The notes under the pieces are model-generated. The model was not told where the DNA came from, did not search any database, and saw only the letters and a list, made by a program, of their open reading frames with translations. Below are positions 87-14,843 of a stretch of DNA of 14,843 bases, piece after piece. The stretch's first letter is position 1; each line of letters begins with the position of its first letter. The DNA is from Candidatus Heimdallarchaeota archaeon (GTDB lineage: Archaea; Asgardarchaeota; Heimdallarchaeia; Heimdallarchaeales; Heimdallarchaeaceae), in the NCBI GenBank assembly GCA_030668825.1, contig DAOVET010000061.1, positions 1 to 14,843 on the forward strand. Reading direction: 5' to 3'. The position numbers and the translations under genes are program-made.

Positions 87-659
87 TTATGTTCTAATTT
101 GAAGTTTTTTAGTTAGAATATACCATCCACTTCCTAAAGAAACAACAGCAATAATTAGTGATAATGATGACCAGCTAGCTCCAGCTACTGATTTAAGAGT
201 GAATATATAGATCCAATTTGTTTCATAGTAATGAGTTATCAAATCTTCCCCATGATAGACTTCTTCTTGGAATTTAATCAGAATGTCTAAGTCAACATTT
301 CCCCAACTGGAGTTATATTCAAATGTCAAAGTTGCAATGCTGGACATACCATTTGCTGTAAGATTATCAGTTGTTGAACCATAATCCGCAATGTAGGGTT
401 CTATTCTGAAGAAAACTTGTATTTCATGAATAAATTGAGAGTCTGTACCCAAGTCTTTTATCTTTATTTCAATTTGAAAAGTATTATTTCCATCTGCTAG
501 TTTTACTGAATCAATGGTAGCAATGATATCATAGATAGTTCCAGATGCAGTATCATATTCAAATGTCTGTGAAGCAGCGTTGACCATTGTCAAGCTTAAA
601 GAGAATAAACAGAGAGATAACAATGTAATAGCTAAAAAGTGTTTTACTGAAGACCTCAT
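87..659 (-). CDS. Hypothetical secreted, C-terminally membrane-anchored (glyco)protein, ~190 aa
   Basis: Signal-peptide-like N-terminus (MRSSVKHFLAITLLSLCLFSLSLTMVNA-AS), acidic Thr/Ser-rich ectodomain with sequons NNT, NLT and NSS, and a C-terminal hydrophobic helix followed by a basic tail (LSLIIAVVSLGSGWYILTKKLQIRT). The start is moved from 686 to the in-frame ATG at 659 because the 686 ATG overlaps a TATA box. Confidence 0.75.
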   Translation of the reverse strand: MRSSVKHFLAITLLSLCLFSLSLTMVNAASQTFEYDTASGTIYDIIATIDSVKLADGNNTFQIEIKIKDLGTDSQFIHEIQVFFRIEPYIADYGSTTDNLTANGMSSIATLTFEYNSSWGNVDLDILIKFQEEVYHGEDLITHYYETNWIYIFTLKSVAGASWSSLSLIIAVVSLGSGWYILTKKLQIRT

Positions 660-684
660 GACTAGTACTTTAGAGTGATTCAGC

Positions 685-698
685 ATATATAATTTGTT
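685..698 (-). promoter_or_regulatory. Archaeal promoter (BRE-like AACAAA + TATA box TTATATAT) for a leaderless transcript starting near ATG 659
   Basis: The minus strand reads AACAAA-TTATATAT, then 25 nt, then ATG. There is no SD motif before the ATG. Confidence 0.6.
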
Positions 699-710
699 AA
701 TAAGGAAAGA

Positions 711-1595
711 CTATATCTTGTATACAACCTGTGGTTCTGGTCTTGGAACCAATCTTCTGTATGTGCTTTTTGGGTAACCAACAGCTAAACAAGCATAGAG
801 TGTATGATTCTCTGGAAGATTGATTATCTCTCTAATTCTCTTAGAGTTCTCCCAACTCTTCTGGACATAACCGATGAATGTAGCCCCCAAACCCAGAGTT
901 GGAGCACCTAATGCTATATTCTGAGCTGCTATGTTACAATCTTCTATTGGTGATGATGTCTCAATATCAGTATGAATCAAAATAAGTGTTGATGAGTAAT
1001 GTAGAACTTTATCTATTCCTTTCTCCCAATGTTCAATGTGACTCTCTAACCGATATAGGCTTTTCTTAGCTTTATCAAAGAACTTCTTTTTACCACTTAA
1101 CAAAGCAAGAACATTCCAGAGAGTACTATTCAGCTGTTTCTTGAGTTTCTTGAAAAGCTCAATCATATTATCGAGGAGAAATTCAAGTTCTTTTCTATTA
1201 TTGATTATTGTATAACAGACTTTCCTATCATTATGTCCTGTGGGAGCATATCTTCCTAAATCTATCAGCTGTTCCATTTGTTCTTTGGTCACTTTTTTAC
1301 TTGAGAAATATCTTATAGATCTTCTCTGACGAATTGTTTCCAGAACTTGGTCGTAAGATAAAGTTTTTCCTTTCTTAGGGAAATTTTCATCAAGAGAATT
1401 TTCTATCATTCTATGTTGAACTATAGCATTTTCTGGACATACTGCAACACAATGACCACAATCATGACATCGGAATAAATTTTGATTAGTTACAGCTTTC
1501 TTATCAACTATATCAAAAATATATCGAGGACAAACATTGGAACAGCTTCCACATCCTATACAATCTTCTGTAATAGAAATTATTTCAGTACTCAT
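711..1595 (-). CDS. Nitroreductase-family flavoprotein with N-terminal 2x[4Fe-4S] ferredoxin domain
   Basis: Ferredoxin motifs CIGCGSCSNVCP and CHDCGHCVAVCP. Nitroreductase FMN-binding motifs RRSIRYF and APTGHN, plus LGLGATFIG and LAVGYP. Confidence 0.92.
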   Translation of the reverse strand: MSTEIISITEDCIGCGSCSNVCPRYIFDIVDKKAVTNQNLFRCHDCGHCVAVCPENAIVQHRMIENSLDENFPKKGKTLSYDQVLETIRQRRSIRYFSSKKVTKEQMEQLIDLGRYAPTGHNDRKVCYTIINNRKELEFLLDNMIELFKKLKKQLNSTLWNVLALLSGKKKFFDKAKKSLYRLESHIEHWEKGIDKVLHYSSTLILIHTDIETSSPIEDCNIAAQNIALGAPTLGLGATFIGYVQKSWENSKRIREIINLPENHTLYACLAVGYPKSTYRRLVPRPEPQVVYKI

Positions 1596-1653: not shown

Positions 1654-2637
1654 CTATGGTACAGGATATAATTCATCAAAAACAGTATCTTTTACAATTT
1701 CTTCAAGATTCATCATAGGGGTATACCCTAACCGCTCAAGTTTATCAGTAGCGAAAATCCATTCCTTCCCCACCATTCTTGCATACTCACGATTGATTAA
1801 TGGTTGCTTCCTTGGTGAGACGAACCAGTGAATCCTTTCAAACATCCAAACCGCTACATAGACTATTGGGAAAGGAAGAGAATATTTGAATCTCTTTTTC
1901 CCAACAAGATGTTCCTCCATAACTAGTATCAAATCTTTGAATGATCTATTACATGAAACAATATTATAACATTCAATTTCATCTGAACCATTTTTAGTTA
2001 ATATCTCAAAAGCTTGACCTATATCATATGGATGAACTATTGAAACTTCATGTTTTGAATTTCCTAAAATTGGCATTATGTTAACTTTTACTAGCTTACT
2101 TACAACTGGATAGAAATGTCTATCATGTTTCCCCAAGATTAGTGGTATTCGTAAAATACTCCCTTTAATTCCGTTCTCTTCGCACATAATTTTTATAAGA
2201 ATCTCTGAATTTAATTTTGAATCTGCATAAAGACCTCTAGGCTTAAGTCTATGATTTTCTTTTGCAGGAGATTCAATTATTTTTCCATAAACAGCAGTAG
2301 TACTAGCAAAAATAATGTGTTTGATTTTATAATCTATTGCTGCTTGAATAACATTATTGGTTCCCTCGAAATTGACTTCATTGAAATCTTTTTTCTTAAC
2401 ATTTCTATGAACAGCTGCTGCTAGGTGCCAGATTGTGTCAATTTCATTTTCTTTTAGAATGTTTATTATTGACTGTTTATCTGTCAGGTCTCCAATTACA
2501 TACTTGACACCTTGTATTGGATTTGTGGGACTTTTTCTCACCATACCAAATATATTGGAATAGCCTTTAGCTTTAAGGTAATGCAAAACGCCCATTCCTG
2601 TACATCCAGATGCCCCTGTAACTAGTATACCTACCAT
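1654..2637 (-). CDS. NAD(P)-dependent epimerase/dehydratase (extended SDR family)
   Basis: Rossmann motif TGASGCTG, GDL, HLAA, VNFEGT, STTAVYG and catalytic YxxxK (YADSK). Confidence 0.9.
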   Translation of the reverse strand: MVGILVTGASGCTGMGVLHYLKAKGYSNIFGMVRKSPTNPIQGVKYVIGDLTDKQSIINILKENEIDTIWHLAAAVHRNVKKKDFNEVNFEGTNNVIQAAIDYKIKHIIFASTTAVYGKIIESPAKENHRLKPRGLYADSKLNSEILIKIMCEENGIKGSILRIPLILGKHDRHFYPVVSKLVKVNIMPILGNSKHEVSIVHPYDIGQAFEILTKNGSDEIECYNIVSCNRSFKDLILVMEEHLVGKKRFKYSLPFPIVYVAVWMFERIHWFVSPRKQPLINREYARMVGKEWIFATDKLERLGYTPMMNLEEIVKDTVFDELYPVP

Positions 2638-2660
2638 GACAATAGAGACAAAGCTAGCTC

Positions 2661-2676
2661 ATAAAAAAATCTTCTC
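2661..2676 (-). promoter_or_regulatory. Candidate BRE + TATA-like element (GAGAAGAT-TTTTTTAT) for a leaderless SDR transcript
   Basis: A purine-rich run followed by a T/A box, 23 nt upstream of ATG 2637. There is no SD motif at normal spacing. Confidence 0.4.
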
Positions 2677-2682
2677 CTTGTT

Positions 2683-2700
2683 GAAAGAAGAAAAAGAAAG
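2683..2700 (-). terminator. U-rich archaeal-type terminator downstream of cdr
   Basis: The minus strand reads CTTTCTTTTTCTTCTTTC, beginning 11 nt after the TAA stop. No hairpin is present. Confidence 0.5.
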
Positions 2701-2711
2701 TAGAGGTTGAA

Positions 2712-4421
2712 TTAACAACTTTGTCCTGAAAAGGGTTTGAGTTCCCCTACATGACCACCAGGTGGTAAATTGGAAATTTGATATGTATCATATCCACCAT
2801 TAAGGTTAATCACATTGAAACCATTATGTATAAGAATTCTGTAAGCAAGATAAGATGAAAATCCAACTTGACAATGCACACAAATTTGTTTATCCTTTGG
2901 AAGTTCATCAAGTCTAGATCTTAACTGTCCTAGGGGTATATTAATTGAGCCTTCAATATGTCCTTCCTCAAAGCTTTCAGGTGGTCTTACATCTACTATG
3001 ATTCCTCCATTTGATTTGAGTTTTTCAGTTTCATTCCATTGACACAACTTAACTTCACCAGAATGAACATTGGAAGCAACAAAACCAGCCATGTTAACAC
3101 AATCTCTTGCGCAACTAAATGGAGGTGCATAACACAATTCAAGATCTTGTAAATCATATACTGTTCCACCGAAATAGATAACAGTTGATAATATATCTAT
3201 CCTTTTTTCAGTTCCAGGTCCTCCTACAGCTTGAGCTCCTAAGATTTTACCATCTTTCTTATCAAAAATCAATTTCATTGCTATAGCTTGTGCTTCTGGA
3301 TAATACCCAGCATGGTTTTTGGGATGAACATAGATTTTTTCATATTCTATTTCCAAGGCATTCAGCTGTCTTTCAGTTAAACCTGTTTGTGCAGCTGTTT
3401 TACTAAATACTTGCAGTACTGCTGTACCTAATGCTCCTTTATACTTTGAATCTCTTCCAGCGATGTTATCAGCAGCAATTCTCCCCTGACGATTTGCAGG
3501 TCCAGCTAAAGGTACTGCAGTTTTTTTATGTGTTATAAGGTTGTTAATTTGAATTGCATCACCTACAGCGTATATATCAGGATCAGATGTCCTCATATTG
3601 TCATTAACAACAATATATCCTCGTTCAGTAAGTTCTAGATCACAACCTTTAGCTAATTCAGTTTGAGGTCTTACTCCAATACAGAGAACAATTAAATCTG
3701 TTTCTATTTTCTTCCCACTTTGAGTAGTCACTATGTATTTTTTACTTCCTGAATTATTATTGCTAAAGGATTTAACACCATCTCCGAGAATAAGTTGAAT
3801 ACGGTTCAATACTATTTCGTTGTTTATGAATTGAGCCATATCTTTATCCATTGTAGGCATAACTTGATCAAGAAGTTCAATTAAAGATACTCTCATTCCT
3901 CTAAAAGAAAGATTTTCTGCCATCTCTAAGCCAACATATCCTCCACCGATAACAACAGCTGTAGTTGGATTATTCTTTGTTATGAAATCCTCTATAGCCA
4001 AGGTATCTGGAATGTTTCTTAATGTAAATACAGGAACTTCGTTTATCCCTTTAAAATTAGGTCTTAAACATTCAGCTCCAGGAGATAAAACTAGATTATC
4101 ATAATCAAGAGTGTATTCTTCTTCTGTTTTTTGATTCTTAATCATAACCTGTTTTTTTTCTCTATTAATTGATAATACTTCAGAGTTAGTTCTAACATCA
4201 ATATTGAATTTAGATTTGAAATCACCAGGTTTCATTACTTCCAATGTTTCTCTTTCTTTAATCACTTTTCCCACATAATATGGTAATCCACAATTTGCGA
4301 AAGATACATATGGTCCTTTTTCTAGCATAACTATTTCTGTAGTTTCTTCTAGTCTTCTTAGTCTTGCAGCAGTTGAAGCTCCTCCAGCCACTCCTCCTAC
4401 AATCAACACTTTTTTAGTCAT
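2712..4421 (-). CDS. cdr: CoA-disulfide/persulfide reductase with C-terminal rhodanese domain (CoADR-RHD / Npsr-like)
   Basis: FAD motif GGVAGG, redox-active SFANCGLPY, NAD-binding GGGYVGLE, YAVGD, interface motif YAPPFS, and a rhodanese domain (IVDVR..F..GHIEGSINIP, HCQVG, NLNGGY). SD GGTGA at 4426-4430. Confidence 0.92.
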   Translation of the reverse strand: MTKKVLIVGGVAGGASTAARLRRLEETTEIVMLEKGPYVSFANCGLPYYVGKVIKERETLEVMKPGDFKSKFNIDVRTNSEVLSINREKKQVMIKNQKTEEEYTLDYDNLVLSPGAECLRPNFKGINEVPVFTLRNIPDTLAIEDFITKNNPTTAVVIGGGYVGLEMAENLSFRGMRVSLIELLDQVMPTMDKDMAQFINNEIVLNRIQLILGDGVKSFSNNNSGSKKYIVTTQSGKKIETDLIVLCIGVRPQTELAKGCDLELTERGYIVVNDNMRTSDPDIYAVGDAIQINNLITHKKTAVPLAGPANRQGRIAADNIAGRDSKYKGALGTAVLQVFSKTAAQTGLTERQLNALEIEYEKIYVHPKNHAGYYPEAQAIAMKLIFDKKDGKILGAQAVGGPGTEKRIDILSTVIYFGGTVYDLQDLELCYAPPFSCARDCVNMAGFVASNVHSGEVKLCQWNETEKLKSNGGIIVDVRPPESFEEGHIEGSINIPLGQLRSRLDELPKDKQICVHCQVGFSSYLAYRILIHNGFNVINLNGGYDTYQISNLPPGGHVGELKPFSGQSC

Positions 4422-4602
4422 AGGTTCACCGATTTTTTTTGCAAAATTGTATCAAACTCAAAGCCTTATGCTTTAAATGTAATTGTCTGAGCATGCCTAT
4501 ACTAATATTGATGACGCTAATTAAACAAAAGTAAGGTTATAAAAATAACAGAAATATATAGGTAAAAAACTGGTGATTTATATCTATAACAATTACCTTA
4601 AG

Positions 4603-5019
4603 TTATTGAATCAATTGTAGAGAAAGGGGCCCAAGTTTTTTCAATTCGTCCACAAACTCAGTTACAACTTCTGCGAATTTATGTCCTTCTGAAGCAGAGA
4701 CAAACTCGAATCTAACCCTATTGGGATTAATTCCCATCTCTTCCAAAAATTTCTTTGTGAGTTTTATTCGTCGACTAGCTTTATAATTTCCAGATTTATA
4801 GTGGCACTCACCAAAATGACAAGCACCGATTAATACACCATCTGCTCCTTTTCGAAATGATTCTAGAACAAATGCTGGATCAATTCTCCCTGAACACATG
4901 ACTCGGATTATTTTAATGTTAGGTGGATATTTAATTCTACTAGTTCCAGCTAAATCAGCTCCTGCATATGCGCACCAATTACATAGAAAGCCGATAATAT
5001 TGGGTTCATAATCTTCCAT
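4603..5019 (-). CDS. mvhD: MvhD-family [2Fe-2S] subunit (hydrogenase/HdrA adaptor), copy 2
   Basis: GFLCNWCAYAGADLAG, RVMCSGR, GADGVLIGACHFGECHY, VSASEG..FAE. SD AGGAG at 5027-5031. Confidence 0.95.
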   Translation of the reverse strand: MEDYEPNIIGFLCNWCAYAGADLAGTSRIKYPPNIKIIRVMCSGRIDPAFVLESFRKGADGVLIGACHFGECHYKSGNYKASRRIKLTKKFLEEMGINPNRVRFEFVSASEGHKFAEVVTEFVDELKKLGPLSLQLIQ

Positions 5020-5058
5020 TTTTTTTCTCCTTTATTATTTATACTGAATTTGTTATCT

Positions 5059-5553
5059 TCATACGATATTTGCTGTTATTTCCTCTTTTAATTCTTGAAT
5101 GATTGTTTGATAAACTTGATTAACGATTCCTTCAAACTTTTTTTGGAGTTCGAATGATAATTCATCACTAAACTCCATAGGATTCATGATTTCTATCCCG
5201 ATGATTTTTATATTCTTTGGAACATCGTCATATATTTGATTACTAAATTCCAAAGCTGTAAAGATATCTATGTTGTGATAATGCGAAGTATGTGAAGCAA
5301 GTGAAAATTCTTCAGGTTGAAGCTGTATTACTGTTCCTACTGAATTCTTTCCTGTTTGAATTGAATCTACAAGTATAGCACTGTCATATCCTCGAATCAA
5401 CTCCACTAACCCCAAACCTGCAATAGATATATCAGCCAAGATTTTAGTATTTTTTATAGGAGAAAATGTGTCCCTAATGCGCTCCATAACTTTGATGCCT
5501 ATAGCATCATCTCCTACTATAGGGTTTCCTAATCCTATTATTACTGATTTCAA
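5059..5553 (-). CDS. [NiFe]-hydrogenase maturation endopeptidase (HycI/HybD family), TTG start
   Basis: IIGLGNPIVGDDAIG, ILVDS and SHYH metal-ligand motifs. It lies in the same operon as a large subunit that carries a cleavable C-terminal extension. Confidence 0.9.
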   Translation of the reverse strand: MKSVIIGLGNPIVGDDAIGIKVMERIRDTFSPIKNTKILADISIAGLGLVELIRGYDSAILVDSIQTGKNSVGTVIQLQPEEFSLASHTSHYHNIDIFTALEFSNQIYDDVPKNIKIIGIEIMNPMEFSDELSFELQKKFEGIVNQVYQTIIQELKEEITANIV

Positions 5554-5556
5554 CCT

Positions 5557-8500
5557 TTATTTTTCTCCTAATGCTTTTATTTGTGCAAGTATTTGATGAT
5601 CAGTGTATCCAAGATGGTTAATCGCACCATTCAAACAAGCTGCTGCACAACTTCCACATCCTTTACATAAGGCTTCATTAACACTTGCCACTTCAGTTTC
5701 GTATCCGAATTGATTAATTATCTTGAGTTCTATTGCTGAATACGGACATGATTCAACGCAGAGTCCACATCCTCTACACAAACTCTCATCAACATGAGCA
5801 ATTGTTGCTTCTATTTCCAATTCTTTTTGTGAGAGTATATTACATGCTCTTGATGCAGCACTACTAGCTTGAGCTACTGTATCAGGTATATCTTTGGGAC
5901 TTTGGCAGCATCCTGCTAAAAAAACACCATCTGTAAAAGTATCTACAGGTCGGAGCTTTGGATGAGCTTCTAAGAAAAATCCATCTTCACTCATGCTAAT
6001 ATTCAATAACCTAGATAGTTCTTTGGAATCTTCTCGAGGAACTAAACCAGTTGCTAATACAACAAGATCTGCATGAATATCTGGATGTCCTTCTGCTTTG
6101 ACAATTACTCCCTTTTCATTACCGACCACTTGAATTGAATCATCTAATTCTCTTCTTCTGTAATCAACATCTTCAGCTTGTACTCTATTATAGAATTCCT
6201 CAAATCCTTTCCCGAATGCTCTAACATCTGTGTTATAAACAGTCAGTTTAGAATTTGGTAATTTATCTCTGACCATGTGTGCTTGTTTAGCAGTATACAT
6301 ACAGCAGACTCTTGAGCAGTATTTATGTCCTTCTTTATCCCTTGAACCAACGCATTGGATAAAAACTACATTCTCGGGTTCTTTTCCATTAATCTCAATA
6401 TGACCAGCTGTTGGTCCTGAAGCTGAAACTAATCTTTCAAATTCCATACCTGTAAGAACATTTGAAGTTTGACCATATCCATATTCAGGTTTGTTACTTG
6501 GGTCATAATTGTCAAATCCTGTTGCAACAACTATTGCTCCTATGTCTAGTTCAACATATTCAACTTCTTGATCATGAATTATAGCTTCTGCTTCACATGT
6601 TTCAACACATTGCATACATTCAGAACAGATCGAACAAGAGATACATCTTAGTGCCTCTTGAACAGCTTCTTCCTCAGTATATCCTAAATCAATTTCTCGG
6701 AAATCCTTTATTCTTTCCTCAACAGGAGCGCGTTTCATTTTCGCTCTAGGACGTTTCTCTTTATCAAGTCTGACAAAATCTATCTTAGTTATATCTCTAA
6801 CCCTACCTTCCTTAATGTCAACTTTTCGTAGATATCTGTCAATTGAAATTGCAGCTTCGGCACCCATTCCTATTGCATTGACTACAGATGGTACACCTGG
6901 GACAATGTCTCCCCCTGCAAATATTCCAGGAATATTTGTTTCAAAGGTTATAGGATCAATCTTTATTGTTCTACCACCAGGATTTGTCTCAATTTCCTCA
7001 AAACCTGTTAGATCAGATTTCTGTCCTATAGCAAAGATAATAGTATCACCTTCAATATCAGGAGAAGGATCATCATGAAATTCTGGTCTGAATGAACCAT
7101 CTTCTTCATAAACTGAAATACAAATTATGGTTTCTAAACCTGTAACTTTTCCTTTCTTGCTAAGTATCTTTTTGGGACCTAGTTCATTATAGAATATTAT
7201 CCCTTCCTCTTCTGATTCTTCTATTTCCCATATGTCAGCAGGCATTCTATCTTTCAATGCTAAATCTCTCGTCTCTAGACAAACAACACTGACTTCTTTT
7301 GCTCCCATTCTTAGTGCAACTTTAGCACAATCCATCGCTACGTTTCCACCACCAATAACAATAATTTTTTCTCCAAATTCTGGTGTTTTTATTCCCTTTT
7401 TCGCATCCTTTAGGAAAGTTAATCCTTCTAATATTCCTGAAACATCAGAACCTTCAACTTCTAAAACAGCTGGGAGCTGAGCTCCAATTCCTATGAAAAC
7501 AGCATCGTACTTATTCTTAATCTCTTCAAAAGAAATATCTTCTCCAACCTTAGTGTTTTTTATCAGGTTTATTCCTTGAACTAGAAGTCGATTTATATCA
7601 TATAACGCTATATCTAGAGGAAGACGATAAGAAGGAAGACAACTTGTCATAATCCCCCCAGGAATATCTGCTTCATCATAGACAGTTACAGGATATCCTT
7701 GCTCAAGCAATCTAATAGCACAAGATAGTCCTGAAGGTCCAGCTCCAATAATAGCTATTTTTTCTTTATTTGTAGGTTTTATAACCTCTGGAGAAGGCTC
7801 ATCATGTAATCTATTGTAATCTACAGCGAATCTTTTTAATTGCATTATTGACACAGGTTCATCAATCTCTGCTCTTTTACAAACCTCTTCACAAGGATGA
7901 TGACAAACTCTTCCACAAACTGAAGGAAACGGATTTTTATCTCGGATTACACCAAGAGCTTCTTTATATTTTCCCATACCTATAAGTTGAACGTATCCTT
8001 GAGCATTATTATTTGCAGGACATGCTACTTTACATGGAGAGTATTCCTCTAATTTAGCAATAACGTATTTCTTAGGAACAGCTTGAGGAAAAGGTATGTA
8101 GATTGCTTTTCTAGTCGTCATATTTTCATTATAATCATCCAGTTCTATTACAGGACAATTTTCTACACAGTCACCACACGCAGTACATTTGTTTACATCT
8201 ACAAAACGTGGCTTCTTTTTTACTGAAACTTTGAAATTACCTGCAAATCCTTCAACTTTTTCTATCTCAGAATAGGTCATAAGCTCTACATTTGGATGAC
8301 GAGCTACATCTACCATTTTTGGTGTTAAAATACATGCTGAACAATCTAAGGTTGGAAAAGTCTTATCTAATTGAGCCATTCTTCCTCCAATACTAGGTGT
8401 TTTTTCGACTAAATATGTGTGAAAACCCATATTTCCAATATCTAAAGCAGCTTGAATACCTGCTATTCCACCACCTATAACAAGAGCATTTGGAGTTACC

Positions 8501-8910
8501 CCTACTTTTTTCTTAATCAGAGGTTTTAAAAGAGATGCTTTGAGAACTCCACTTCTTACCAATGAAATTGCTTTCTCCGTTCCTTTTTCTTTATCTTTAT
8601 GTACCCATGAATCTTGTTCTCTAATATTAACCATTTCAAGGCAATATGGATTCATTCCTTTTTCTTCAACAACAGCTCTAAATGTTGGTTCATGCATTCT
8701 AGGAGAACAAGAAGCTACTACAATACGATCTAACCCAAGATTTTCAATGTCTTGTTTGATAAGTTCTTGACCTGGTTCTGAACACATGTATTTGTAATAT
8801 TTGCTAATTTCTACATTCGGAAAATCTTTCGCAACTTCAGCAACTTTCTCAACGTCAACTGTTGCACTGATATTAATCCCACACTCACATACATATACTC
8901 CTATTTTCAT
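5557..8910 (-). CDS. hdrA: Large HdrA-like flavo-Fe-S protein (HdrL type): HdrA core with an inserted GltD/NfnB-like NAD(P)H-binding FAD module
   Basis: HdrA motifs: VYVCECG, ASCSPRMHE, GGGIAG, DKTFPTLDCSAC, QCVGSRD, CSRVCCMYTAK, PKDIPDTVAQ and two C-terminal CxxCxxCxxxC. The insert contains PCKVACP, NPFPSVCGRVCHHPCEEVC, IIGAGPSG, GGGNVAMD, FAGGD and EALRC. Confidence 0.92.
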   Translation of the reverse strand: MKIGVYVCECGINISATVDVEKVAEVAKDFPNVEISKYYKYMCSEPGQELIKQDIENLGLDRIVVASCSPRMHEPTFRAVVEEKGMNPYCLEMVNIREQDSWVHKDKEKGTEKAISLVRSGVLKASLLKPLIKKKVGVTPNALVIGGGIAGIQAALDIGNMGFHTYLVEKTPSIGGRMAQLDKTFPTLDCSACILTPKMVDVARHPNVELMTYSEIEKVEGFAGNFKVSVKKKPRFVDVNKCTACGDCVENCPVIELDDYNENMTTRKAIYIPFPQAVPKKYVIAKLEEYSPCKVACPANNNAQGYVQLIGMGKYKEALGVIRDKNPFPSVCGRVCHHPCEEVCKRAEIDEPVSIMQLKRFAVDYNRLHDEPSPEVIKPTNKEKIAIIGAGPSGLSCAIRLLEQGYPVTVYDEADIPGGIMTSCLPSYRLPLDIALYDINRLLVQGINLIKNTKVGEDISFEEIKNKYDAVFIGIGAQLPAVLEVEGSDVSGILEGLTFLKDAKKGIKTPEFGEKIIVIGGGNVAMDCAKVALRMGAKEVSVVCLETRDLALKDRMPADIWEIEESEEEGIIFYNELGPKKILSKKGKVTGLETIICISVYEEDGSFRPEFHDDPSPDIEGDTIIFAIGQKSDLTGFEEIETNPGGRTIKIDPITFETNIPGIFAGGDIVPGVPSVVNAIGMGAEAAISIDRYLRKVDIKEGRVRDITKIDFVRLDKEKRPRAKMKRAPVEERIKDFREIDLGYTEEEAVQEALRCISCSICSECMQCVETCEAEAIIHDQEVEYVELDIGAIVVATGFDNYDPSNKPEYGYGQTSNVLTGMEFERLVSASGPTAGHIEINGKEPENVVFIQCVGSRDKEGHKYCSRVCCMYTAKQAHMVRDKLPNSKLTVYNTDVRAFGKGFEEFYNRVQAEDVDYRRRELDDSIQVVGNEKGVIVKAEGHPDIHADLVVLATGLVPREDSKELSRLLNISMSEDGFFLEAHPKLRPVDTFTDGVFLAGCCQSPKDIPDTVAQASSAASRACNILSQKELEIEATIAHVDESLCRGCGLCVESCPYSAIELKIINQFGYETEVASVNEALCKGCGSCAAACLNGAINHLGYTDHQILAQIKALGEK
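6261..6323. repeat. 63-nt perfect direct repeat shared between the hdrA paralogues (other copy 9609-9671)
   Basis: Base-by-base comparison. Encodes YCSRVCCMYTAKQAHMVRDK. Confidence 0.9.
8329..8394. repeat. 66-nt perfect direct repeat shared between the hdrA paralogues (other copy 10288-10353)
   Basis: Base-by-base comparison. Encodes SIGGRMAQLDKTFPTLDCSACI. Confidence 0.9.
8615..8715. repeat. 101-nt near-perfect repeat (2 mismatches; 56-nt perfect core at 8660-8715) shared between the hdrA paralogues (other copy 10574-10674)
   Basis: Base-by-base comparison, with the same 1959-nt offset as the 66-nt block. Encodes ASCSPRMHEPTFRAVVEE.GMNPYCLEMVNIRE. Confidence 0.9.
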
Positions 8911-8922
8911 AATTTTCCTCTC

Positions 8923-10869
8923 CTATTTAGCCAAAATACCTCCGATTTGAGCAAGGACTTGCTTATTACTATAGTGTTTCATTTTTATTGCACCCGTTGG
9001 ACAAGCTGCGGCACAACTACCGCATCCTTTACACAAGACATCATTTATCTTCATGATTTTATCTTCACTGGAAAATTCTAAAGCAGAATAAGCACATAGT
9101 TTCTCACAAATACGACATCCACTGCACAAATCATCATTTATTGTAGCAGTAATGGCTTCGACTAGAGCTTTACCTTGAGCTAAAGGAGCTGCTGCTCTAA
9201 CTGCTGCTCCACTTGCTTGTGCAACTGTATCTGGTATGTCTTTAGGACTCTGACAACAACCTGCTATGAAAATTCCATCTGTAAAAGTATCTAAAGGACG
9301 AAGCTTTGGATGAGCTTCTAAAAGGAAACCGTCAGCGCTCAAGCTGATATTAAGTTTTCTAGCTAGCTCTTTGTTATCCTTTCTAGGTATCAAACCTGTT
9401 GCTAACACAACCAAGTCTGCATGGATATCAGGATGATCTTCAGCTTTAACAATTACTCCTCCTTCATTACCAACAACTTGAATTGGATCATCTAATTCTC
9501 TTCTTCTGTATTCAACATCTTCATCTTTAACTCTATTATAAAATTCCTCAAATCCTTTACCAAAAGCTCTAACATCTGTGAAATAAACTGCTATTTTTGA
9601 ATCGGGATATTTATCTCTGACCATGTGTGCTTGTTTAGCAGTATACATACAGCAGACTCTTGAGCAGTATTCATGTCCTTCTTTATCTCGAGAACCAACA
9701 CATTGGATAAATACCACATTCTCAGGTTCTTTTCCATTAATTTCAAGATGTCCTTCAGTAGGACCTGCAGCGTTAACAATTCTCTCAAATTCCATTCCTG
9801 TTATTACGCTTGCATTTTCCTTATAGCCATACTTTGATTCTGGTGATGGATCAAAATTATCAAAACCTGTTGCAACAATAATAGTTCCAACATCTAATTC
9901 CACTAATTCTTCTTTCTGATTAAAATCAATTGCATTTTGTTCACAAGCACCAACACAAAGTAGTTCATCTCCACATTTCCCAAATTTTAACATATTGCAA
10001 CGTTCCGGATCTATAGTGTACACGAAAGGAACGGCTTGAGGAAATGGGATATAAATTGCGCTTCTTTTACTTAGGTTCTCATCAAATTCATTAAGAACTC
10101 GTCCTTTTAATCTACATGCTTCAGCGCAGAGTCCACACCCAACACATTTCTCGATATTTACATATCTTGGTTTCTTTTTGACTGTGACTTTGAAATTACC
10201 AATATAACCATCAACTTTCTCAATTTCTGAATAGGTCAGGAGTTCTATATTTGGGTGTCTTGCAGCATCCACCATTTTAGGTGCCAGAATACATGCTGAA
10301 CAATCTAAGGTTGGAAAAGTCTTATCTAATTGAGCCATTCTTCCTCCAATACTTGGATTTCGATCAACAAGATAGACCTGAAACCCATCATTTGCAATCT
10401 CTAAAGCAGCTTGAATACCCGCTATACCTCCACCAATAACCAATGATTTGGGGATAACACTTACTTCCTTACGTTCTAATGGTTCGAGAAATTGTGCTCT
10501 AGCAACAGCACCCGAAATTAGTTTTATTGCTTTCTCTGTAGCTCTTTCTTTGTCAGAATGTACCCATGAAACATGTTCTCTAATATTAACCATCTCAAGG
10601 CAATATGGATTCATTCCATTTTCTTCAACAACAGCTCTAAATGTTGGTTCATGCATTCTAGGAGAACAAGAAGCAACTACAACTCTATCTAGATTCAGCT
10701 CTTTTATGTCTTTTCTAATTAATTCTTGCCCAGAATCAGAACAAATGTACTTACTATAACGGCTACTTTCTACATTCGGAAGTGATTTAATTCTCTCTAC
10801 AACTTCAGGTACATTTACTGTAGCACTAATATTGATCCCACACTCACATACATATACGCCTATTTTCAT
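8923..10869 (-). CDS. hdrA: Heterodisulfide reductase subunit A (canonical size, putative electron-bifurcating FAD/Fe-S protein)
   Basis: The full HdrA motif set as above, an internal ferredoxin (CVGCGLCAEAC; CNMLKFGKCGDELLCVGAC) and a C-terminal ferredoxin (CSGCRICEKLC; CKGCGSCAAACP). SD GGGTGG upstream. Confidence 0.95.
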   Translation of the reverse strand: MKIGVYVCECGINISATVNVPEVVERIKSLPNVESSRYSKYICSDSGQELIRKDIKELNLDRVVVASCSPRMHEPTFRAVVEENGMNPYCLEMVNIREHVSWVHSDKERATEKAIKLISGAVARAQFLEPLERKEVSVIPKSLVIGGGIAGIQAALEIANDGFQVYLVDRNPSIGGRMAQLDKTFPTLDCSACILAPKMVDAARHPNIELLTYSEIEKVDGYIGNFKVTVKKKPRYVNIEKCVGCGLCAEACRLKGRVLNEFDENLSKRSAIYIPFPQAVPFVYTIDPERCNMLKFGKCGDELLCVGACEQNAIDFNQKEELVELDVGTIIVATGFDNFDPSPESKYGYKENASVITGMEFERIVNAAGPTEGHLEINGKEPENVVFIQCVGSRDKEGHEYCSRVCCMYTAKQAHMVRDKYPDSKIAVYFTDVRAFGKGFEEFYNRVKDEDVEYRRRELDDPIQVVGNEGGVIVKAEDHPDIHADLVVLATGLIPRKDNKELARKLNISLSADGFLLEAHPKLRPLDTFTDGIFIAGCCQSPKDIPDTVAQASGAAVRAAAPLAQGKALVEAITATINDDLCSGCRICEKLCAYSALEFSSEDKIMKINDVLCKGCGSCAAACPTGAIKMKHYSNKQVLAQIGGILAK

Positions 10870-10879
10870 AATACCACCC

Positions 10880-11719
10880 TTACATATCTCCTTCTAGATT
10901 TCTCAGTTGTTCATATGAAAACACTGGACCATCTTTACAAACATAGAGATTGCCTATGTTACACCTTCCACAAATGCCTATACCACATTTCATTCTCATT
11001 TCTAGAGTAGTGAAAATTTGATCATCTTTAAATCCTAAATCAACTAAATTCTGGATGACATATTTAATCATAATTGGTGGACCACATGTTATTGCAATAG
11101 TTTGATCTGGGGAAGGATTCAGTTTCTTAAGATTATCAGGAACAAATCCTACAAAGTCATCCCACCCCTCTTCTTCAACATCTATAGATAGATGGATATT
11201 GACATCATCTTTCTTTCCTAATTCTGCGAATTCTTCTTTGTAGCACAGATCATTTGTGCTTCTCGCTCCATAAATAATGTCTAAATTGGCATATTTATCT
11301 CGGTTATCTAGAGCGAAATTAATTATTGAACGAAGTGGAGCTTGACCGATTCCTCCTCCAATAAATAACAAATTCTTTCCTTCCCACTCTTTCACATTGA
11401 AGTGATTACCATAGGGACCTCTCAATCCTACTGAATCTCCAGGTTCATATTGGTGCAACTCAGTTGTGACTTTACCCAATCTTAGAACGCTCACTTCTAA
11501 GTACTCCTTTTGAGTGGGTGATGAAGAGATAGCGAACATGCTCTCACCAGTTCCAAATACACTTACCATAATAGTTTGCCCTGGTAGGAAGGTGAACTTC
11601 TTTTTGACTTCTTCATCTTTCAAAACTAATTTGAAGGTCTTAATAGGTCTCTCACCAACAGCTTCTTGTGTGATTCCAGAAATTGTAGCTAACCATGGGC
11701 TATATGGGTTTTTACTCAT
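10880..11719 (-). CDS. flxA: FlxA / AsrB / sulfhydrogenase gamma-like FAD/NAD(P)H-binding [2Fe-2S] subunit (FNR family)
   Basis: PGQ, ISSSP, LRGPYGN, GGGIGQAPLR, YGARS, CGPPIM and [2Fe-2S] motif MKCGIGICGRC..VCKDGPVF. The start overlaps the upstream gene by 8 nt. The symbol is assigned from gene order. Confidence 0.85.
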   Translation of the reverse strand: MSKNPYSPWLATISGITQEAVGERPIKTFKLVLKDEEVKKKFTFLPGQTIMVSVFGTGESMFAISSSPTQKEYLEVSVLRLGKVTTELHQYEPGDSVGLRGPYGNHFNVKEWEGKNLLFIGGGIGQAPLRSIINFALDNRDKYANLDIIYGARSTNDLCYKEEFAELGKKDDVNIHLSIDVEEEGWDDFVGFVPDNLKKLNPSPDQTIAITCGPPIMIKYVIQNLVDLGFKDDQIFTTLEMRMKCGIGICGRCNIGNLYVCKDGPVFSYEQLRNLEGDM

Positions 11720-12743
11720 TTGATATGACCCCCACTTTTTCTATTACATCTATGATATCAATATTTACAGGACAATAATCAATACATCTCCCACAACCCG
11801 TACAAGCAGTGATATCTTCATTCTTAGGGAAATAGCTGAACTTGTGATAAACTCTATTTCTTACTCTGCTCATTCTTATTGCTCTTGGATTGTGTCCTGA
11901 GGCATGCTGAGTGTATTCAGGATACATACACGAATCCCATACACGAATTCTTGCTCCTTCTCTCAGAGAAGATTCATCTTGCATATCGAAACAGTGACAA
12001 GTCGGACACAGATAAGTATAGATTCCACATCCAATACATTTTTGGGCAGTATTATGCCATAATTCGTGATCAAACATCTTATCTAGTTTAGGGACTAATC
12101 CATCAAGATCCATTTTTCTTGTGATACTTTCAACAGATTTGGTTACAATATTTCTTTTTGAATCTTCATCGTTTTTTGTAGATTTTTCAAATATATCTTC
12201 TACTGATTTTATCAGATTTTTTCCTTTTTCTGTGACTACTTCTACATAGAACCTATCATCTAAATCTGTAAAAAGAATGTCAACATTTTCAGTTGAACCT
12301 GGACTATCATCAAATGAAGTGCAGAAACAATTCTTCTCTGGAGAGTTACAAGTTAATCCGATTAGAACAGTATTTTTCCTTTTTGAAATGTAAAAAGGAT
12401 CTTCAAAATTCCCTTCGAAAACTGGATCAAGTATTTTAAAACTTCGAGCATCACAAGGTCTAATTGCAAAAATTAAACTCTTCTCTTCATTTATTTCAGT
12501 CGAAGTAACTGTACCTTTTCTTCCTGGTGTAAACTTGAATAGAGTCTCTGTCTGTTTGAAGATAAGAGATTTTGGAGGGACACGTGTTAAAAGGTATTTT
12601 AGGTTTAGCTCATCGAAATTACTAATTTGCTTGAACAATGAAAATCCATTTTCTTCAGTAGGCCCATATAGAACATGATTGGAAGAGAGCTTCTCAATCA
12701 GCTCAGGGAGTTTGTCTTTTTGTAAAATTAAATTTTCCATCAT
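11712..12743 (-). CDS. flxB: FlxB / AsrA / sulfhydrogenase beta-like 4Fe-4S dicluster protein
   Basis: RPCD, C..NCFC, CIGCGI(Y)TYLCPTCHCF, WDSC, RNRVYHKF and CTGCGRCIDYCPVNI. SD GAGGTG overlaps the upstream stop. The symbol is assigned from gene order. Confidence 0.85.
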   Translation of the reverse strand: MMENLILQKDKLPELIEKLSSNHVLYGPTEENGFSLFKQISNFDELNLKYLLTRVPPKSLIFKQTETLFKFTPGRKGTVTSTEINEEKSLIFAIRPCDARSFKILDPVFEGNFEDPFYISKRKNTVLIGLTCNSPEKNCFCTSFDDSPGSTENVDILFTDLDDRFYVEVVTEKGKNLIKSVEDIFEKSTKNDEDSKRNIVTKSVESITRKMDLDGLVPKLDKMFDHELWHNTAQKCIGCGIYTYLCPTCHCFDMQDESSLREGARIRVWDSCMYPEYTQHASGHNPRAIRMSRVRNRVYHKFSYFPKNEDITACTGCGRCIDYCPVNIDIIDVIEKVGVISNE

Positions 12744-12749
12744 AACACC

Positions 12750-13733
12750 TCACATAATAAACTCCTCGGGATCATCAGGTCGGAAAGTACCAAATAATGG
12801 TTTTTCTTCCGAGTCCATACCAGCAGAATATTCAAACATATTTTTCACGTCTTTCTCAATCTCTTTGTTTAATTCCATAAGAGGGATATTTACAGGACAA
12901 ACAGATTCACACTCTCCACACCCTACGCAACGTCCTGCTAGATGATATGCTCGCATAATATTCCAAGCAGTATTTTCTGATAGATTTACAGATCGTCTAA
13001 TCCACTGAGGATTAAGAAGATCAGCCATACATTCCTTACAATAACACAATGGGCATGCTTCTCTACAGGCATAACATCGAATACATCTATCAAAGTGTTC
13101 TTTCCAGTATTCCCATCTCTCTCCAACATCTTTTTCTTCTAGAACATCGAGATTCTTATGCTCTTCCAGATCCCAAGGTTCAACCTCTTCCCCAATAAGT
13201 ACATCATAAATAACAGGATTAGGAGCAATACAACTAGTACAGTGATCTGCTAACAGTTCCTCTTTAGCAATTTCATGAACTTTTCCATTAATAGTAATTT
13301 TATAAAATCCTTGCTCTTCTTCTATCGTAGAATAAGCTGTTTCATTGGGGAACATTGCTGTAATTTTCTTGTAATCAATTACACCTGAACACGGAATGCC
13401 AATAATAACTAAGTCCTCACGATTAAGTCCTTTCTCCTGGATAATCTGAACCAATGCTCGAGTGTCACATCCTTTTGCAACAATGCCTATCTTTCTTTTA
13501 TCCTCTTTTTCTTCTCGTTTTAAAGGAAGTTTATCTTCTAAGAGAGGATAAGCAGCAAGATTCTTTTTGCATAGAGGGTTAAAGATGAATTTGTCCGCAT
13601 ATTCAGTAGAGTAAGCAAATGCTGGACTTATTGTAAAACCAGTTGTTCCTTTCTTATAACCAATAACATATTTAACATCATCACGTGATACAACTTTCTT
13701 AACTTCATCTATAAGCAGTTGCTGATCTACCAT
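12750..13733 (-). CDS. flxC: FlxC-like (FdhB/FrhB-related) 4Fe-4S dicluster protein
   Basis: KGCD, GIPCSG, CTSC, CIRCYACREACPLCYCKEC and HLAGRCVGCGECESVCP. The start overlaps mvhD by 7 nt. The symbol is assigned from gene order. Confidence 0.8.
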   Translation of the reverse strand: MVDQQLLIDEVKKVVSRDDVKYVIGYKKGTTGFTISPAFAYSTEYADKFIFNPLCKKNLAAYPLLEDKLPLKREEKEDKRKIGIVAKGCDTRALVQIIQEKGLNREDLVIIGIPCSGVIDYKKITAMFPNETAYSTIEEEQGFYKITINGKVHEIAKEELLADHCTSCIAPNPVIYDVLIGEEVEPWDLEEHKNLDVLEEKDVGERWEYWKEHFDRCIRCYACREACPLCYCKECMADLLNPQWIRRSVNLSENTAWNIMRAYHLAGRCVGCGECESVCPVNIPLMELNKEIEKDVKNMFEYSAGMDSEEKPLFGTFRPDDPEEFIM

Positions 13734-14179
13734 TCATTCACCCTCTGAATATCTTTCATTGGACCAATTTTTTTTATATCCTCAGTAACTTCTTTGATTA
13801 CTTCAGCAAATTTCCTACCTTCAGCTGCACTAACCCAGGTCATTCGAACCCTCCGTGAATCTATCCCAATGAATTCCAGAAGATTCTTCAGAATTGCCAT
13901 TCGTCGTCTAGCTAACAAGTTACCATGTTGATAATGACAATCACCAGGATGACAACCTCCGATTAAAACACCATCAGCTCCTTGTTGAAGAGCATTAACA
14001 ACATACATTGGATTTACTCTTCCAGAACACATCACTTTGATAATTTTAATGTTGGGGGGATATTGTATCCTGCTGGTTCCAGCTAGGTCTGCGCCTGCGT
14101 AACTGCACCAATTACATAAGAAACCAATTATATTAGGTTCAAACTCCTCCATTTCAGAATTTGTTTCAGTTGCGGTCAT
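13727..14179 (-). CDS. mvhD: MvhD/FlxD-family [2Fe-2S] subunit, copy 1
   Basis: GFLCNWCSYAGADLAG, VMCSGR, GGCHPGDCHY, WVSAAEG. ATGA start/stop overlap with mvhA at 14176-14179. It occupies the flxD position ahead of flxCBA. Confidence 0.95.
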   Translation of the reverse strand: MTATETNSEMEEFEPNIIGFLCNWCSYAGADLAGTSRIQYPPNIKIIKVMCSGRVNPMYVVNALQQGADGVLIGGCHPGDCHYQHGNLLARRRMAILKNLLEFIGIDSRRVRMTWVSAAEGRKFAEVIKEVTEDIKKIGPMKDIQRVNEW

Positions 14180-14843
14180 TTTGAATCTTCTCTCCTTATT
14201 GTTTTGAGTAATTTTTTTTCATGTGAATAAATCTGTACTTCCAAAAGCATTTGACCTGGAAGTGAATGCGTAGCACATGCAAAACAAGGATCATATGCTC
14301 TAAATGCCATTTCTACCATATTGAGTAATCCATCATTGACTACCCCTTTCTTGATAAGTCCTTTAGCAGCTTCTCTGATAGACATACTAATTGCTGCAGC
14401 ATTATTAGTTGTAGCTACAACTAGATTTACTTTTTCGACTAACCCCTTTTCATCTAGCTTATAATGATGAATAAGTGTTCCCCGAGCTGCTTCAGTTACT
14501 CCTATTCCTTCACCAGGTTGTCCAACTGGGTTCCTGATTTTTTTGGAAGTTATATCTGGTTCATTTATTAGCTCTTGAGCTCTTTCTGTTGCATATAATA
14601 GTTCTATTAATCTTGCCCAATGAAAAGCTAATGTGGAATTGATAGGTTTTCCTCCTAAGGTTTCGTACATTCTTTTGTTTTCTGTTTCTGCTAAAGGAGT
14701 TGCCATTCCATCTGCTGCATTTAATCTACCAAGTGGTCCTACTCTATAAACACCGCTTTCTTGACCATCAATAAAACCTTTCCAACCAATCTTCTTCAGA
14801 TATGGAAATTTAGTATAACTCCATTCTTCAACATGCTCATCTA
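14176..14843 (-). CDS. mvhA: Group 3c (Mvh-type) [NiFe]-hydrogenase large subunit, 3' portion (5' end outside the window)
   Basis: The frame stays open beyond the ORF-track Met at 14706 to the window edge (DEHVEEWSYTKFPYLKKIGWKGFIDGQESGVYRVGPLGRLN). It contains EAARGTLIHHY, VATTNN and the L2 motif FRAYDPCFACATH, followed by a 29-aa extension. Confidence 0.95.
   Translation of the reverse strand, partial: DEHVEEWSYTKFPYLKKIGWKGFIDGQESGVYRVGPLGRLNAADGMATPLAETENKRMYETLGGKPINSTLAFHWARLIELLYATERAQELINEPDITSKKIRNPVGQPGEGIGVTEAARGTLIHHYKLDEKGLVEKVNLVVATTNNAAAISMSIREAAKGLIKKGVVNDGLLNMVEMAFRAYDPCFACATHSLPGQMLLEVQIYSHEKKLLKTIRREDSK

Follow-up and report, generated by a model that had tools for sequence, protein, structure and literature searches.

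What can a [NiFe] hydrogenase built around HdrA do when the genes of the disulfide-reducing branch, hdrB and hdrC, are not encoded with it? The question is raised by a 14,843-nt contig of Candidatus Heimdallarchaeota archaeon (GenBank assembly GCA_030668825.1, contig DAOVET010000061.1), which was analysed over its whole length and is referred to below as the window. It carries an operon for an Mvh-type hydrogenase, a FlxDCBA module, HdrA and the HdrA-like protein HdrL. We give a probability of about 0.5 to the reading that the operon products form a soluble, HdrA/HdrL-centred complex that connects H2 with NAD(P)H and ferredoxin and has no disulfide branch. The list of parts and the cofactor residues come directly from the sequence; dimer formation, docking and function are predicted from homology and gene neighbourhood.

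Gene content of the operon

The window is the entire contig G000:C84 of a 138-contig metagenome-assembled genome (MAG; 90.6% complete, 33% G+C). All sizeable open reading frames (ORFs) of this 14.8-kb contig lie on the minus strand. Nine of them are tightly packed in the order mvhA (3′ part)-mvhD1-flxC-flxB-flxA-hdrA-hdrL-protease-mvhD2, with successive spacings of -4, -7, +6, -8, +10, +12, +3 and +39 nt, and none contains an in-frame stop. The original prediction of nine co-oriented genes that overlap or stand at most 39 nt apart is thus correct (the spacings range from -8 to +39 nt), and its nine gene labels were all upheld by the Pfam and NCBIfam scans which, together with the ORF listing, provided the labels used here:

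14176-14843, minus strand: mvhA, 3′ part, 221 codons, running off the contig end (Pfam NiFeSe_Hases positions 334-508)
13727-14179, minus strand: mvhD1, [2Fe-2S] adaptor, probably FlxD-type (Pfam FlpD 1.5e-57)
12750-13733, minus strand: flxC, 327 aa, 2x[4Fe-4S] (Fer4_8, Fer4_9 and Fer4_17 at residues 214-283)
11712-12743, minus strand: flxB, 343 aa, HydB/ShyB/AsrA-type Fe-S subunit (Pfam Fer4_22 7.5e-33; NCBIfam ShyB 8e-66)
10880-11719, minus strand: flxA, 279 aa, FNR-type FAD/NAD(P)H protein with [2Fe-2S] (NAD_binding_1, FAD_binding_6, DHODB_Fe-S_bind)
8923-10869, minus strand: hdrA, 648 aa (alignments to 8rvu_a and 5odc_A)
5557-8910, minus strand: hdrL, 1117 aa (Pfam Fer4_20 and Pyr_redox_2 inserted in HdrA)
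5059-5553, minus strand: [NiFe] hydrogenase maturation endopeptidase (Pfam HycI 7.9e-08; NCBIfam hydrog_prot 7.7e-24)
4603-5019, minus strand: mvhD2, probably the hydrogenase-type MvhD (Pfam FlpD 2.9e-57)
4422-4602, minus strand: intergenic region of 181 nt with two oligo-T runs after mvhD2

The oligo-T runs and the 181-nt gap make mvhD2 the likely end of the operon. At the other end, the 5′ part of mvhA and the whole of mvhG are missing because the window is a complete contig and truncates the operon. As predicted, the Pfam scan found no CCG-domain hdrB or hdrC in the window. A chimeric assembly can be ruled out, since Logan contigs of three independent studies cover the window with uniform depth (30/30, 30/30 and 28/30 bins) and the gene order is conserved in relatives. 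No RNA dataset was listed for the window; run X20, labelled RNA-Seq and probably DNA, gave 17 short contigs.

HdrA and HdrL

HdrA aligns over its full length to methanogen HdrA (751 bits to 8rvu_a, 737 bits to 5odc_A). It retains all aligned Fe-S cysteine motifs as well as C193 (C197 of 5ODC, the trans ligand), E362 (E356) and K412 (K409), so that by alignment it has the FAD, the six Fe-S clusters and the E356/K409 pair of HdrA in MvhAGD-HdrABC. E356 and K409 have been described as hallmarks of bifurcating HdrA (PMC12054007). HdrL likewise retains the FAD site and the Fe-S cysteine motifs, and its equivalent residues, C190/C193, E825 and K875, stand in invariant alignment columns.

The HdrA-like halves of HdrL also align to 5odc_A and 8rvu_a, and between them, flanked by the cluster motifs C242-C252 and C756-C772, lies an insert of approximately residues 285-765 (window ~6616-8058). 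The insert is an FAD/NADP(H) module of the GltD/NfnB type that has two [4Fe-4S] sites, and it splits the inserted ferredoxin domain, which in methanogen HdrA passes low-potential electrons to ferredoxin. Residues 290-768 match 9bov_A, 8oh5_C, 9n5u_A (NfnA of NfnABC) and 5jca_L (the large subunit of NfnI). The second dinucleotide motif of HdrL is GGGNVA, of the GxGxxA form, which is regarded as NADP-type, whereas the type III HdrAs treated in PMC12054007 have GxGxxG and are read by its authors as NAD-preferring.

A tree of HdrA cores (24 rows, quick method, insert columns dropped) places the adjacent hdrA and hdrL products as mutual nearest relatives in the genus of the window, in a Hadarchaeota locus (L053; support 99, starred) and in locus L038 (100, starred). 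The pairs are located as follows:

Window, 5557-10869: adjacent hdrA and hdrL
L053, 9050-14394: adjacent hdrA and hdrL
L038, 2982-8320: adjacent hdrA and hdrL

Recurring in three distant lineages, this pattern points to repeated duplications in which the insert was gained or lost, or to gene conversion within the tandem. The window cores belong to a clade (98, starred) separate from the HdrAs of the same genus that are linked to hdrCB (100, starred).

Hydrogenase and the two MvhD adaptors

The MvhA fragment carries a C-terminal DPCFACATH motif followed by a cleavable 29-aa tail. Its full-length ortholog in genome G012 (493 aa, 97% identical over the length of the fragment) scores 420 bits with NCBIfam VhuA, below the equivalog cut-off of 800 and against 192 bits for the next family; its best PDB matches are 7t2r_D (395 bits) and 5odc_F (376 bits). 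By these matches the large subunit is of the group-3c [NiFe] type. The MvhG of the orthologous operon has VhuG as its top NCBIfam match (217 bits), and mvhG is located directly 5′ of mvhA in all eight orthologous contigs that extend upstream.

To assign the two adaptors, 30 MvhD sequences, each labelled according to its gene neighbours, were placed in a tree. MvhD1 falls into a group of seven, all members of which precede flxC (support 82/68), and MvhD2 groups (89/90) with MvhDs of congeners encoded directly 5′ of mvhG and with a lone mvhD product of the Hadarchaeota locus. Neither branch is starred, therefore the assignment of MvhD1 as FlxD and MvhD2 as the MvhD of the hydrogenase is moderately supported.

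Flx chain

FlxA, FlxB and FlxC, together with the FlxD-type MvhD1, adjoin hdrA, and in domain content and order they agree with the Flox-Hdr family. The C-terminal half of FlxC matches FdhB chains of solved Fdh-Hdr complexes in their C-terminal part (9t1s_M 2.5e-25, 7bkb_E 1.6e-22, 8rvu_E 1.3e-21), the region of FdhB that is wired to MvhD in these structures. FlxB is similar to the beta subunit of sulfhydrogenase I (9nez_B, 6.5e-52) and FlxA to its gamma subunit (9nez_C, 3.7e-64), NfnA-type chains being far weaker matches to FlxA (5jca_S, 7.5e-12). FlxA is of the PyrK/FNR type and HydG-like, and it also occurs in clusters that lack HdrL.

Conservation of the operon within the genus

The MvhA fragment was matched in 27 of the 41 relatives searched, and 11 of 24 genomes of the same genus have MvhA orthologs at 82-100% identity. 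Ten of these eleven loci were examined; G009, whose contig ends just past mvhA, was left out. As far as the contigs extend, all ten keep the order mvhG-mvhA-mvhD1-flxC-flxB-flxA-hdrA-hdrL-(protease)-mvhD2, so the arrangement is not a product of chance. Five contigs reach mvhD2 (G012, G001, G013, G006 and G014), and in G014 the protease was not matched in an otherwise conserved operon. Identities of the Flx proteins among the orthologous loci drop to 66-69%.

Two complete operons (G012 and G001) were read upstream. Both begin with mvhG and not with hdrBC, which, if present immediately upstream, would have contradicted the predicted composition. Ahead of mvhG lie 325 bp of AT-rich spacer and then, in divergent orientation, a group-3b-like hydB-hydG-hydD-hydA-protease cluster; a look at ~8 kb upstream and 9 kb downstream of either operon showed no hdrBC.

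HdrBC elsewhere in the lineage

The original claim that HdrBC appears absent stands for the operon and for this assembly but not for the lineage, as CCG matches are found in 24 of 25 genomes of the genus, and 22 of the 24 others have an HdrB-sized (~300 aa) gene. "HdrBC absent" is true for the operon and misleading for the organism. The sole CCG protein assembled in this MAG, on contig C50, is HdrD/GlcF-like with 2x[4Fe-4S] and two CCG domains. Its gene adjoins those of a FAD-linked oxidase (GlcD/D-lactate-dehydrogenase-like) and a GcvH-like protein (G000:C50:3196-5867, minus strand), and it was rejected as an Hdr partner.

In the three relatives checked (G001, G009 and G012) hdrCB belongs to a paralogous cluster, korD-korA-korB-korG-mvhD-flxC-flxB-flxA-hdrA-hdrC-hdrB, after which come genes for an Fe-S protein (242 aa) and a FAD_binding_2 flavoprotein (561 aa, fumarate-reductase/Tfr-like). 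The cluster is found at these positions:

G000:C119:5550-12926 and G000:C9:10275-10754: the cluster in this MAG, in two pieces
L027 (G009:C119), 1680-13674: the complete cluster

In this MAG, C119 ends within hdrA and C9 within the 561-aa flavoprotein gene, so the 3′ end of hdrA, hdrC, hdrB and the Fe-S gene fall in an assembly gap. The cluster could be responsible for NADH-driven bifurcation with a fumarate/thiol high-potential branch and a 2-oxoacid:ferredoxin oxidoreductase as the low-potential branch; presumably, it resembles the NADH-dependent fumarate reductase of Hydrogenobacter.

Other arrangements occur in the same genus. A single cluster of G004 (G004:C76, L030) reads kor-hdrA-mvhD-mvhG-mvhA-mvhD-flxCBA-hdrA-protease-hdrC-hdrB-FeS-flavoprotein, and the same arrangement without Flx is found in G003:C8 (L028) and G021:C149 (L032). 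The order is hdrC-hdrB-hdrL-mvhD-mvhG-mvhA in G007:C56 (L031) and hdrC-hdrB-[split HdrA]-mvhD-mvhG-mvhA in G004:C107. Co-encoding of Mvh and Flx need not be accompanied by loss of HdrBC, as the G004:C76 cluster unites Mvh, Flx, two HdrA, two MvhD and hdrCB. The comparison supports the notion that a hydrogenase and a Flx chain can serve one HdrA core, with two HdrA paralogs accompanying two MvhD paralogs. With at least six combinations of the Kor, Mvh, Flx, HdrA/HdrL, MvhD and HdrCB modules in one genus, it also suggests rapid shuffling of modules around the HdrA core.

The split HdrA, found in L029 (G004:C107, 6483-11447) and in L106 (214-5138), is encoded by three ORFs: the N-terminal half fused to a [2Fe-2S] domain like that of NuoE, an FMN/NADH subunit resembling NuoF, and a Fer2_4 domain of the NuoG-N-like kind fused to the C-terminal half. 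The NuoEF/Bfu-type NADH module thereby occupies the position of the GltD insert in HdrL. Neighbours of the split HdrA are hdrCB and mvhDGA in G004 and flxDCBA, mvhDGA and a plain hdrA in L106.

Distribution beyond the genus

Species-representative genomes were scanned with HdrL as the anchor, and neighbours were taken from BLAST-labelled ORFs within 10 kb in the best 80 of 593 confirmed stretches, a set from which the window's own and very near genomes were possibly left out. Among these 80 loci FlxB is found in 13 and a Mvh-type large subunit in 10, both being present in two (L053 and L106). A match to HdrB occurs in one of the 13 loci with Flx (L050) and in five of the 10 with Mvh (L036, L046, L047, L068 and L110).

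L053, on a 1.03-Mb contig of Hadarchaeota, comprises mvhD, divergent mvhG-mvhA, and hdrA-hdrL-mvhD-flxC-flxB-flxA, an order unlike that of the window. Its HdrL is of the true GltD type, and no match to HdrB, HdrC or a CCG-type protein was found within 10 kb. L106, a 14-kb contig labelled "Thermoplasmata", was rejected as a second copy of the gene set, its "HdrL" being the three-ORF HdrA with NuoE-, NuoF- and NuoG-N-like parts. By gene content it is an analogue of the window gene set, with a NuoEF-type module in place of the GltD insert. Since the FlxD of L106 nests among sequences of the Heimdall genus, transfer or mis-binning is possible. In a sample of 151 Asgard genomes, full-length GltD-type HdrL was present, among the matches listed, in the genus of the window and in one other family.

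Other redox links in the genome

No [FeFe] hydrogenase, NuoF-type module (PF01512) or RnfD was found in the assembly, and HdrL contains its sole Fer4_20 (GltD/NfnB) module. The usual alternatives for coupling NAD(P)H, ferredoxin and H2 are thus not found, provisionally, as the genome is 90.6% complete; if these absences are real, no link between the three can be recognised other than the HdrA/Flx systems. The only other [NiFe] hydrogenase match is a group-4-type core next to hypD (C32:17531-22522; L121 2532-7523), consisting of a NuoC-like protein, a NuoD-like large subunit with the NiFe motif, a NuoI-like 2x[4Fe-4S] protein and a NuoB-like small subunit. C32 was considered as the carrier of the missing mvhG and mvhA 5′ end and rejected, as it holds hypD and this core instead.

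Proposed function and alternative explanations

The operon products are proposed to form one soluble multi-flavin iron-sulfur complex with an HdrA:HdrL dimer as its core. Both proteins keep the N-terminal domain and the trans-ligating cysteine, as would be expected of a dimer. MvhD2 would dock the hydrogenase (MvhA and MvhG) on one protomer, probably HdrL. MvhD1 (FlxD) would dock the chain of FlxA (FAD, NAD(P)H), FlxB and FlxC on the other, in the way FdhB sits on MvhD in Fdh-Hdr. The inserted ferredoxin domain of the plain HdrA would be left free to react with ferredoxin, and NADP(H) would react at the GltD insert, which fills the ferredoxin exit of HdrL; an NAD(P) module at this exit has also been proposed for type III HdrA (PMC12054007).

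Electrons could then be exchanged among H2, NAD(P)H (at two sites) and ferredoxin. The most plausible direction would be confurcation in a peptide/2-oxoacid fermenter disposing of NAD(P)H and reduced ferredoxin as H2. H2 formation from NADH and reduced ferredoxin is feasible according to the redox potentials given in PMC9304861. In reverse, H2 would yield NADPH and reduced ferredoxin, and the complex may double as the Nfn-like link between ferredoxin and NADP(H) of the cell. We also put forward, tentatively, a more specific version that we hold to be possible but less likely than not. In it HdrA and HdrL would pair obligately into a heterodimer that has three flavin sites (two FADs of the HdrA type, one of the GltD type) and couples H2, NADH, NADPH and ferredoxin in one particle. 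It would be an HdrA-based [NiFe] hydrogenase, independent of HdrBC, that bifurcates and confurcates and takes over the role of Nfn, and in Hadarchaeota and some Heimdall-group archaea it would form the main hub for H2, NAD(P)H and ferredoxin.

Several observations weigh against a complex without a disulfide branch. Both MvhD ports serve donors in the known enzymes, where the high-potential electron exits via HdrC. Flx and Mvh both attach here via MvhD-type donor-port adaptors, and no obvious high-potential exit is encoded. That leaves three options: an MvhD port serving as the exit, HdrCB joining in trans, or a non-bifurcating enzyme. Furthermore, HdrA and HdrL keep every feature of an HdrBC-associated HdrA, and the two MvhD groupings lack starred support. 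The sister clade of the window pair consists of HdrLs encoded beside hdrC-hdrB and mvhDGA in bacteria (L036, L046, L047 and L110) and in the congener G007, which makes HdrL-type cores compatible with HdrBC. The widespread HdrB-sized genes of congeners and the G004 cluster that joins all the modules with hdrCB point the same way, and since an assembly gap alone explains why hdrCB is missing from this MAG, the HdrCB proteins could be recruited in trans.

The last possibility amounts to a conventional HdrABC-type enzyme that borrows HdrCB from the paralogous cluster, possibly with fumarate-reductase-like partners, and bifurcates electrons of H2 and/or NAD(P)H to ferredoxin and to a disulfide or fumarate-type acceptor. 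We regard it as unlikely on balance and yet a serious contender: besides the hdrCB genes of 22 of 24 congeners, the G004 cluster and the hdrC-hdrB-hdrL-mvhD-mvhGA order of G007, many bacterial HdrL loci adjoin hdrCB, and some methanogens have hdrA and hdrBC unlinked. However, the hdrCB locus has its own MvhD, FlxCBA and HdrA, the last in a separate, strongly supported clade; the Hadarchaeota gene set is likewise without nearby hdrBC, and HdrB is matched in just one of the 13 HdrL loci that contain Flx.

It is improbable, in our estimate, that the operon instead encodes two co-transcribed but separate enzymes, MvhAG-MvhD2-HdrL as an H2:NADP+ (and ferredoxin) oxidoreductase and FlxDCBA-HdrA as an NADH:ferredoxin-type enzyme. 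Each half does occur without the other, as hdrL-mvhD-mvhGA without Flx (L036, L046, L047, L110 and G007) and as hdrA-hdrL-mvhD-flxCBA without Mvh (L038). Yet loci with a lone half usually have hdrCB or a second HdrA, the complete set travels together in two phyla, and HdrA and HdrL are adjacent paralogs evolving in concert in three lineages, both retaining the N-terminal domain and trans-ligating cysteine that a dimer would need. A non-bifurcating NAD(P)+-reducing hydrogenase, functionally like group 3b/3d and with HdrA and HdrL as mere electron wires, would agree with the closeness of FlxB to the beta and of FlxA to the gamma subunit of sulfhydrogenase I and with the lack of an encoded high-potential branch. 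We consider it very improbable, since both HdrA-type subunits keep the FAD environment associated with bifurcation (E356 and K409; PMC12054007) and relatives already have a separate 3b-type hydBGDA cluster next door.

Comparison with known systems

Taken by its parts, the operon is a rewiring of known modules, those of Mvh-Hdr, Flx-Hdr and HdrL/type III HdrA. With MvhAGD-HdrABC of methanogens (5ODC; related 8RVU and 9SW2) it shares group-3c-type large and small subunits, MvhD, and HdrA with complete cluster and FAD residues. It differs in having no HdrB or HdrC, two MvhD, two HdrA paralogs (one with the NADP(H) module) and the added FlxCBA, and in coming from an organism that is not a methanogen. 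The HdrB (with two CCG domains)/HdrC branch was found neither in the operon nor beside the complete orthologous operons, the hdrCB of relatives lying at the paralogous locus.

FlxABCD-HdrABC (Flox-Hdr) of Desulfovibrio vulgaris, which Ramos and colleagues are said to have described in 2015, was compared by gene order and domain content. Shared with it is the order of an mvhD-type adaptor, two Fe-S proteins and an FNR-type flavoprotein beside hdrA, and in both the Flx chain is built of HydB/HydG-like parts. The window operon, in contrast, lacks adjoining hdrBC and includes the hydrogenase and HdrL; hdrB and hdrC of the Flox-Hdr type are absent from it and present in the paralogous cluster of relatives.

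HdrL was defined in Desulfobacterium autotrophicum, as HdrL-MvhD (PMC2702500). HdrA-NfnB fusions and heterodimeric HdrA, including HdrA9-11 of ANME-1, are dealt with in a preprint (PMC9012536), and type III hdrA with mvhADG is reported from Bathyarchaeota (PMC12054007). These proteins share with the window HdrL the GltD/NfnB-type insert within the inserted ferredoxin domain and a nearby MvhD, sometimes with mvhADG clustered. In the window, however, the genes accompanying hdrL code for a plain HdrA paralog, for FlxDCBA and for a second MvhD, with no hdrBC among them.

NfnAB/NfnSL (5JCA) and the Bfu-type NiFe-HydABCSL (7T2R) share with the proposed complex its presumed substrates (ferredoxin, NAD(H), and either H2 or NADPH). 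In HdrL the insert is similar to the large subunit of NfnI, and the best PDB match of the MvhA ortholog is the large subunit of 7T2R. Unlike in these enzymes, the core is HdrA and not Bfu, and FlxA is nearer to HydG than to the small Nfn subunit. NuoF/NuoE-type subunits of Bfu hydrogenases were not found in the operon, nor PF01512 in the 90.6%-complete genome. Sulfhydrogenase I of Pyrococcus furiosus (9NEZ) provides the likenesses for FlxB (beta) and FlxA (gamma), whereas the hydrogenase subunits fit Vhu/Mvh far better than HydA/HydD, and the 3b-like cluster of relatives is a separate, divergent one located upstream.

In the published surveys, as far as their accessible text goes, Asgard archaea including Heimdallarchaeota are assigned "MvhADG-HdrABC" and "FlxABCD-HdrABC" (10.1101/726976; PMC9723677; PMC11291895). 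[NiFe] clusters with FrhG-like subunits and an NAD(P)H-flavin reductase, a protein similar to HdrB, or HdrA were reported for 89 of 94 species (10.1101/2025.02.26.640444), and Syntrophobacter is described as having Hdr/Flox with two hdrA, HdrABC/HdrL and HdrAL/POR (PMC5947623). No description or assay of an HdrBC-free Mvh + FlxDCBA + HdrA + HdrL unit was found in the literature, where supplementary tables (e.g., of the Imachi papers) may list such clusters.

Neighbouring genes

The first gene downstream of the operon (2712-4421, minus strand) codes for a CoADR-type flavoprotein with a C-terminal rhodanese domain, similar to NADH-dependent persulfide/polysulfide reductases. It was rejected as an operon member: present at this position in G000 and G012, it is inverted in G014 and absent there from G001, G013 and G006. 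The remaining genes of the window are:

1654-2637, minus strand: NAD-dependent epimerase
711-1595, minus strand: 2x[4Fe-4S]-nitroreductase fusion
87-686, minus strand: 199-aa ORF with a hydrophobic N-terminus and no Pfam match

The epimerase and the nitroreductase fusion are kept downstream wherever the contigs of relatives reach (G012, G001, G013, G006 and G014), and the 199-aa ORF is kept in G012 and G013 at 81-91% identity. Neighbouring contigs carry genes for small GTPases, which fits an Asgard origin.

Implications for Asgard hydrogen metabolism

Current models of eukaryote origin give a central place to the hydrogen metabolism of Asgard archaea. Reconstructions published so far, to the extent that their text is accessible, usually label the cytosolic hydrogenases of this group as "MvhADG-HdrABC" or "FlxABCD-HdrABC". 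In the Heimdall-group genus described here, the hydrogenase is instead encoded together with two flavoproteins of the HdrA type and two NAD(P)H modules, no disulfide reductase adjoining them, and this predicts an H2/NAD(P)H/ferredoxin reaction and not an H2/heterodisulfide/ferredoxin one. If the proposed complex exists, it would be the first HdrA-based bifurcating hydrogenase working without HdrBC and would show how HdrA cores recombine with donor modules.

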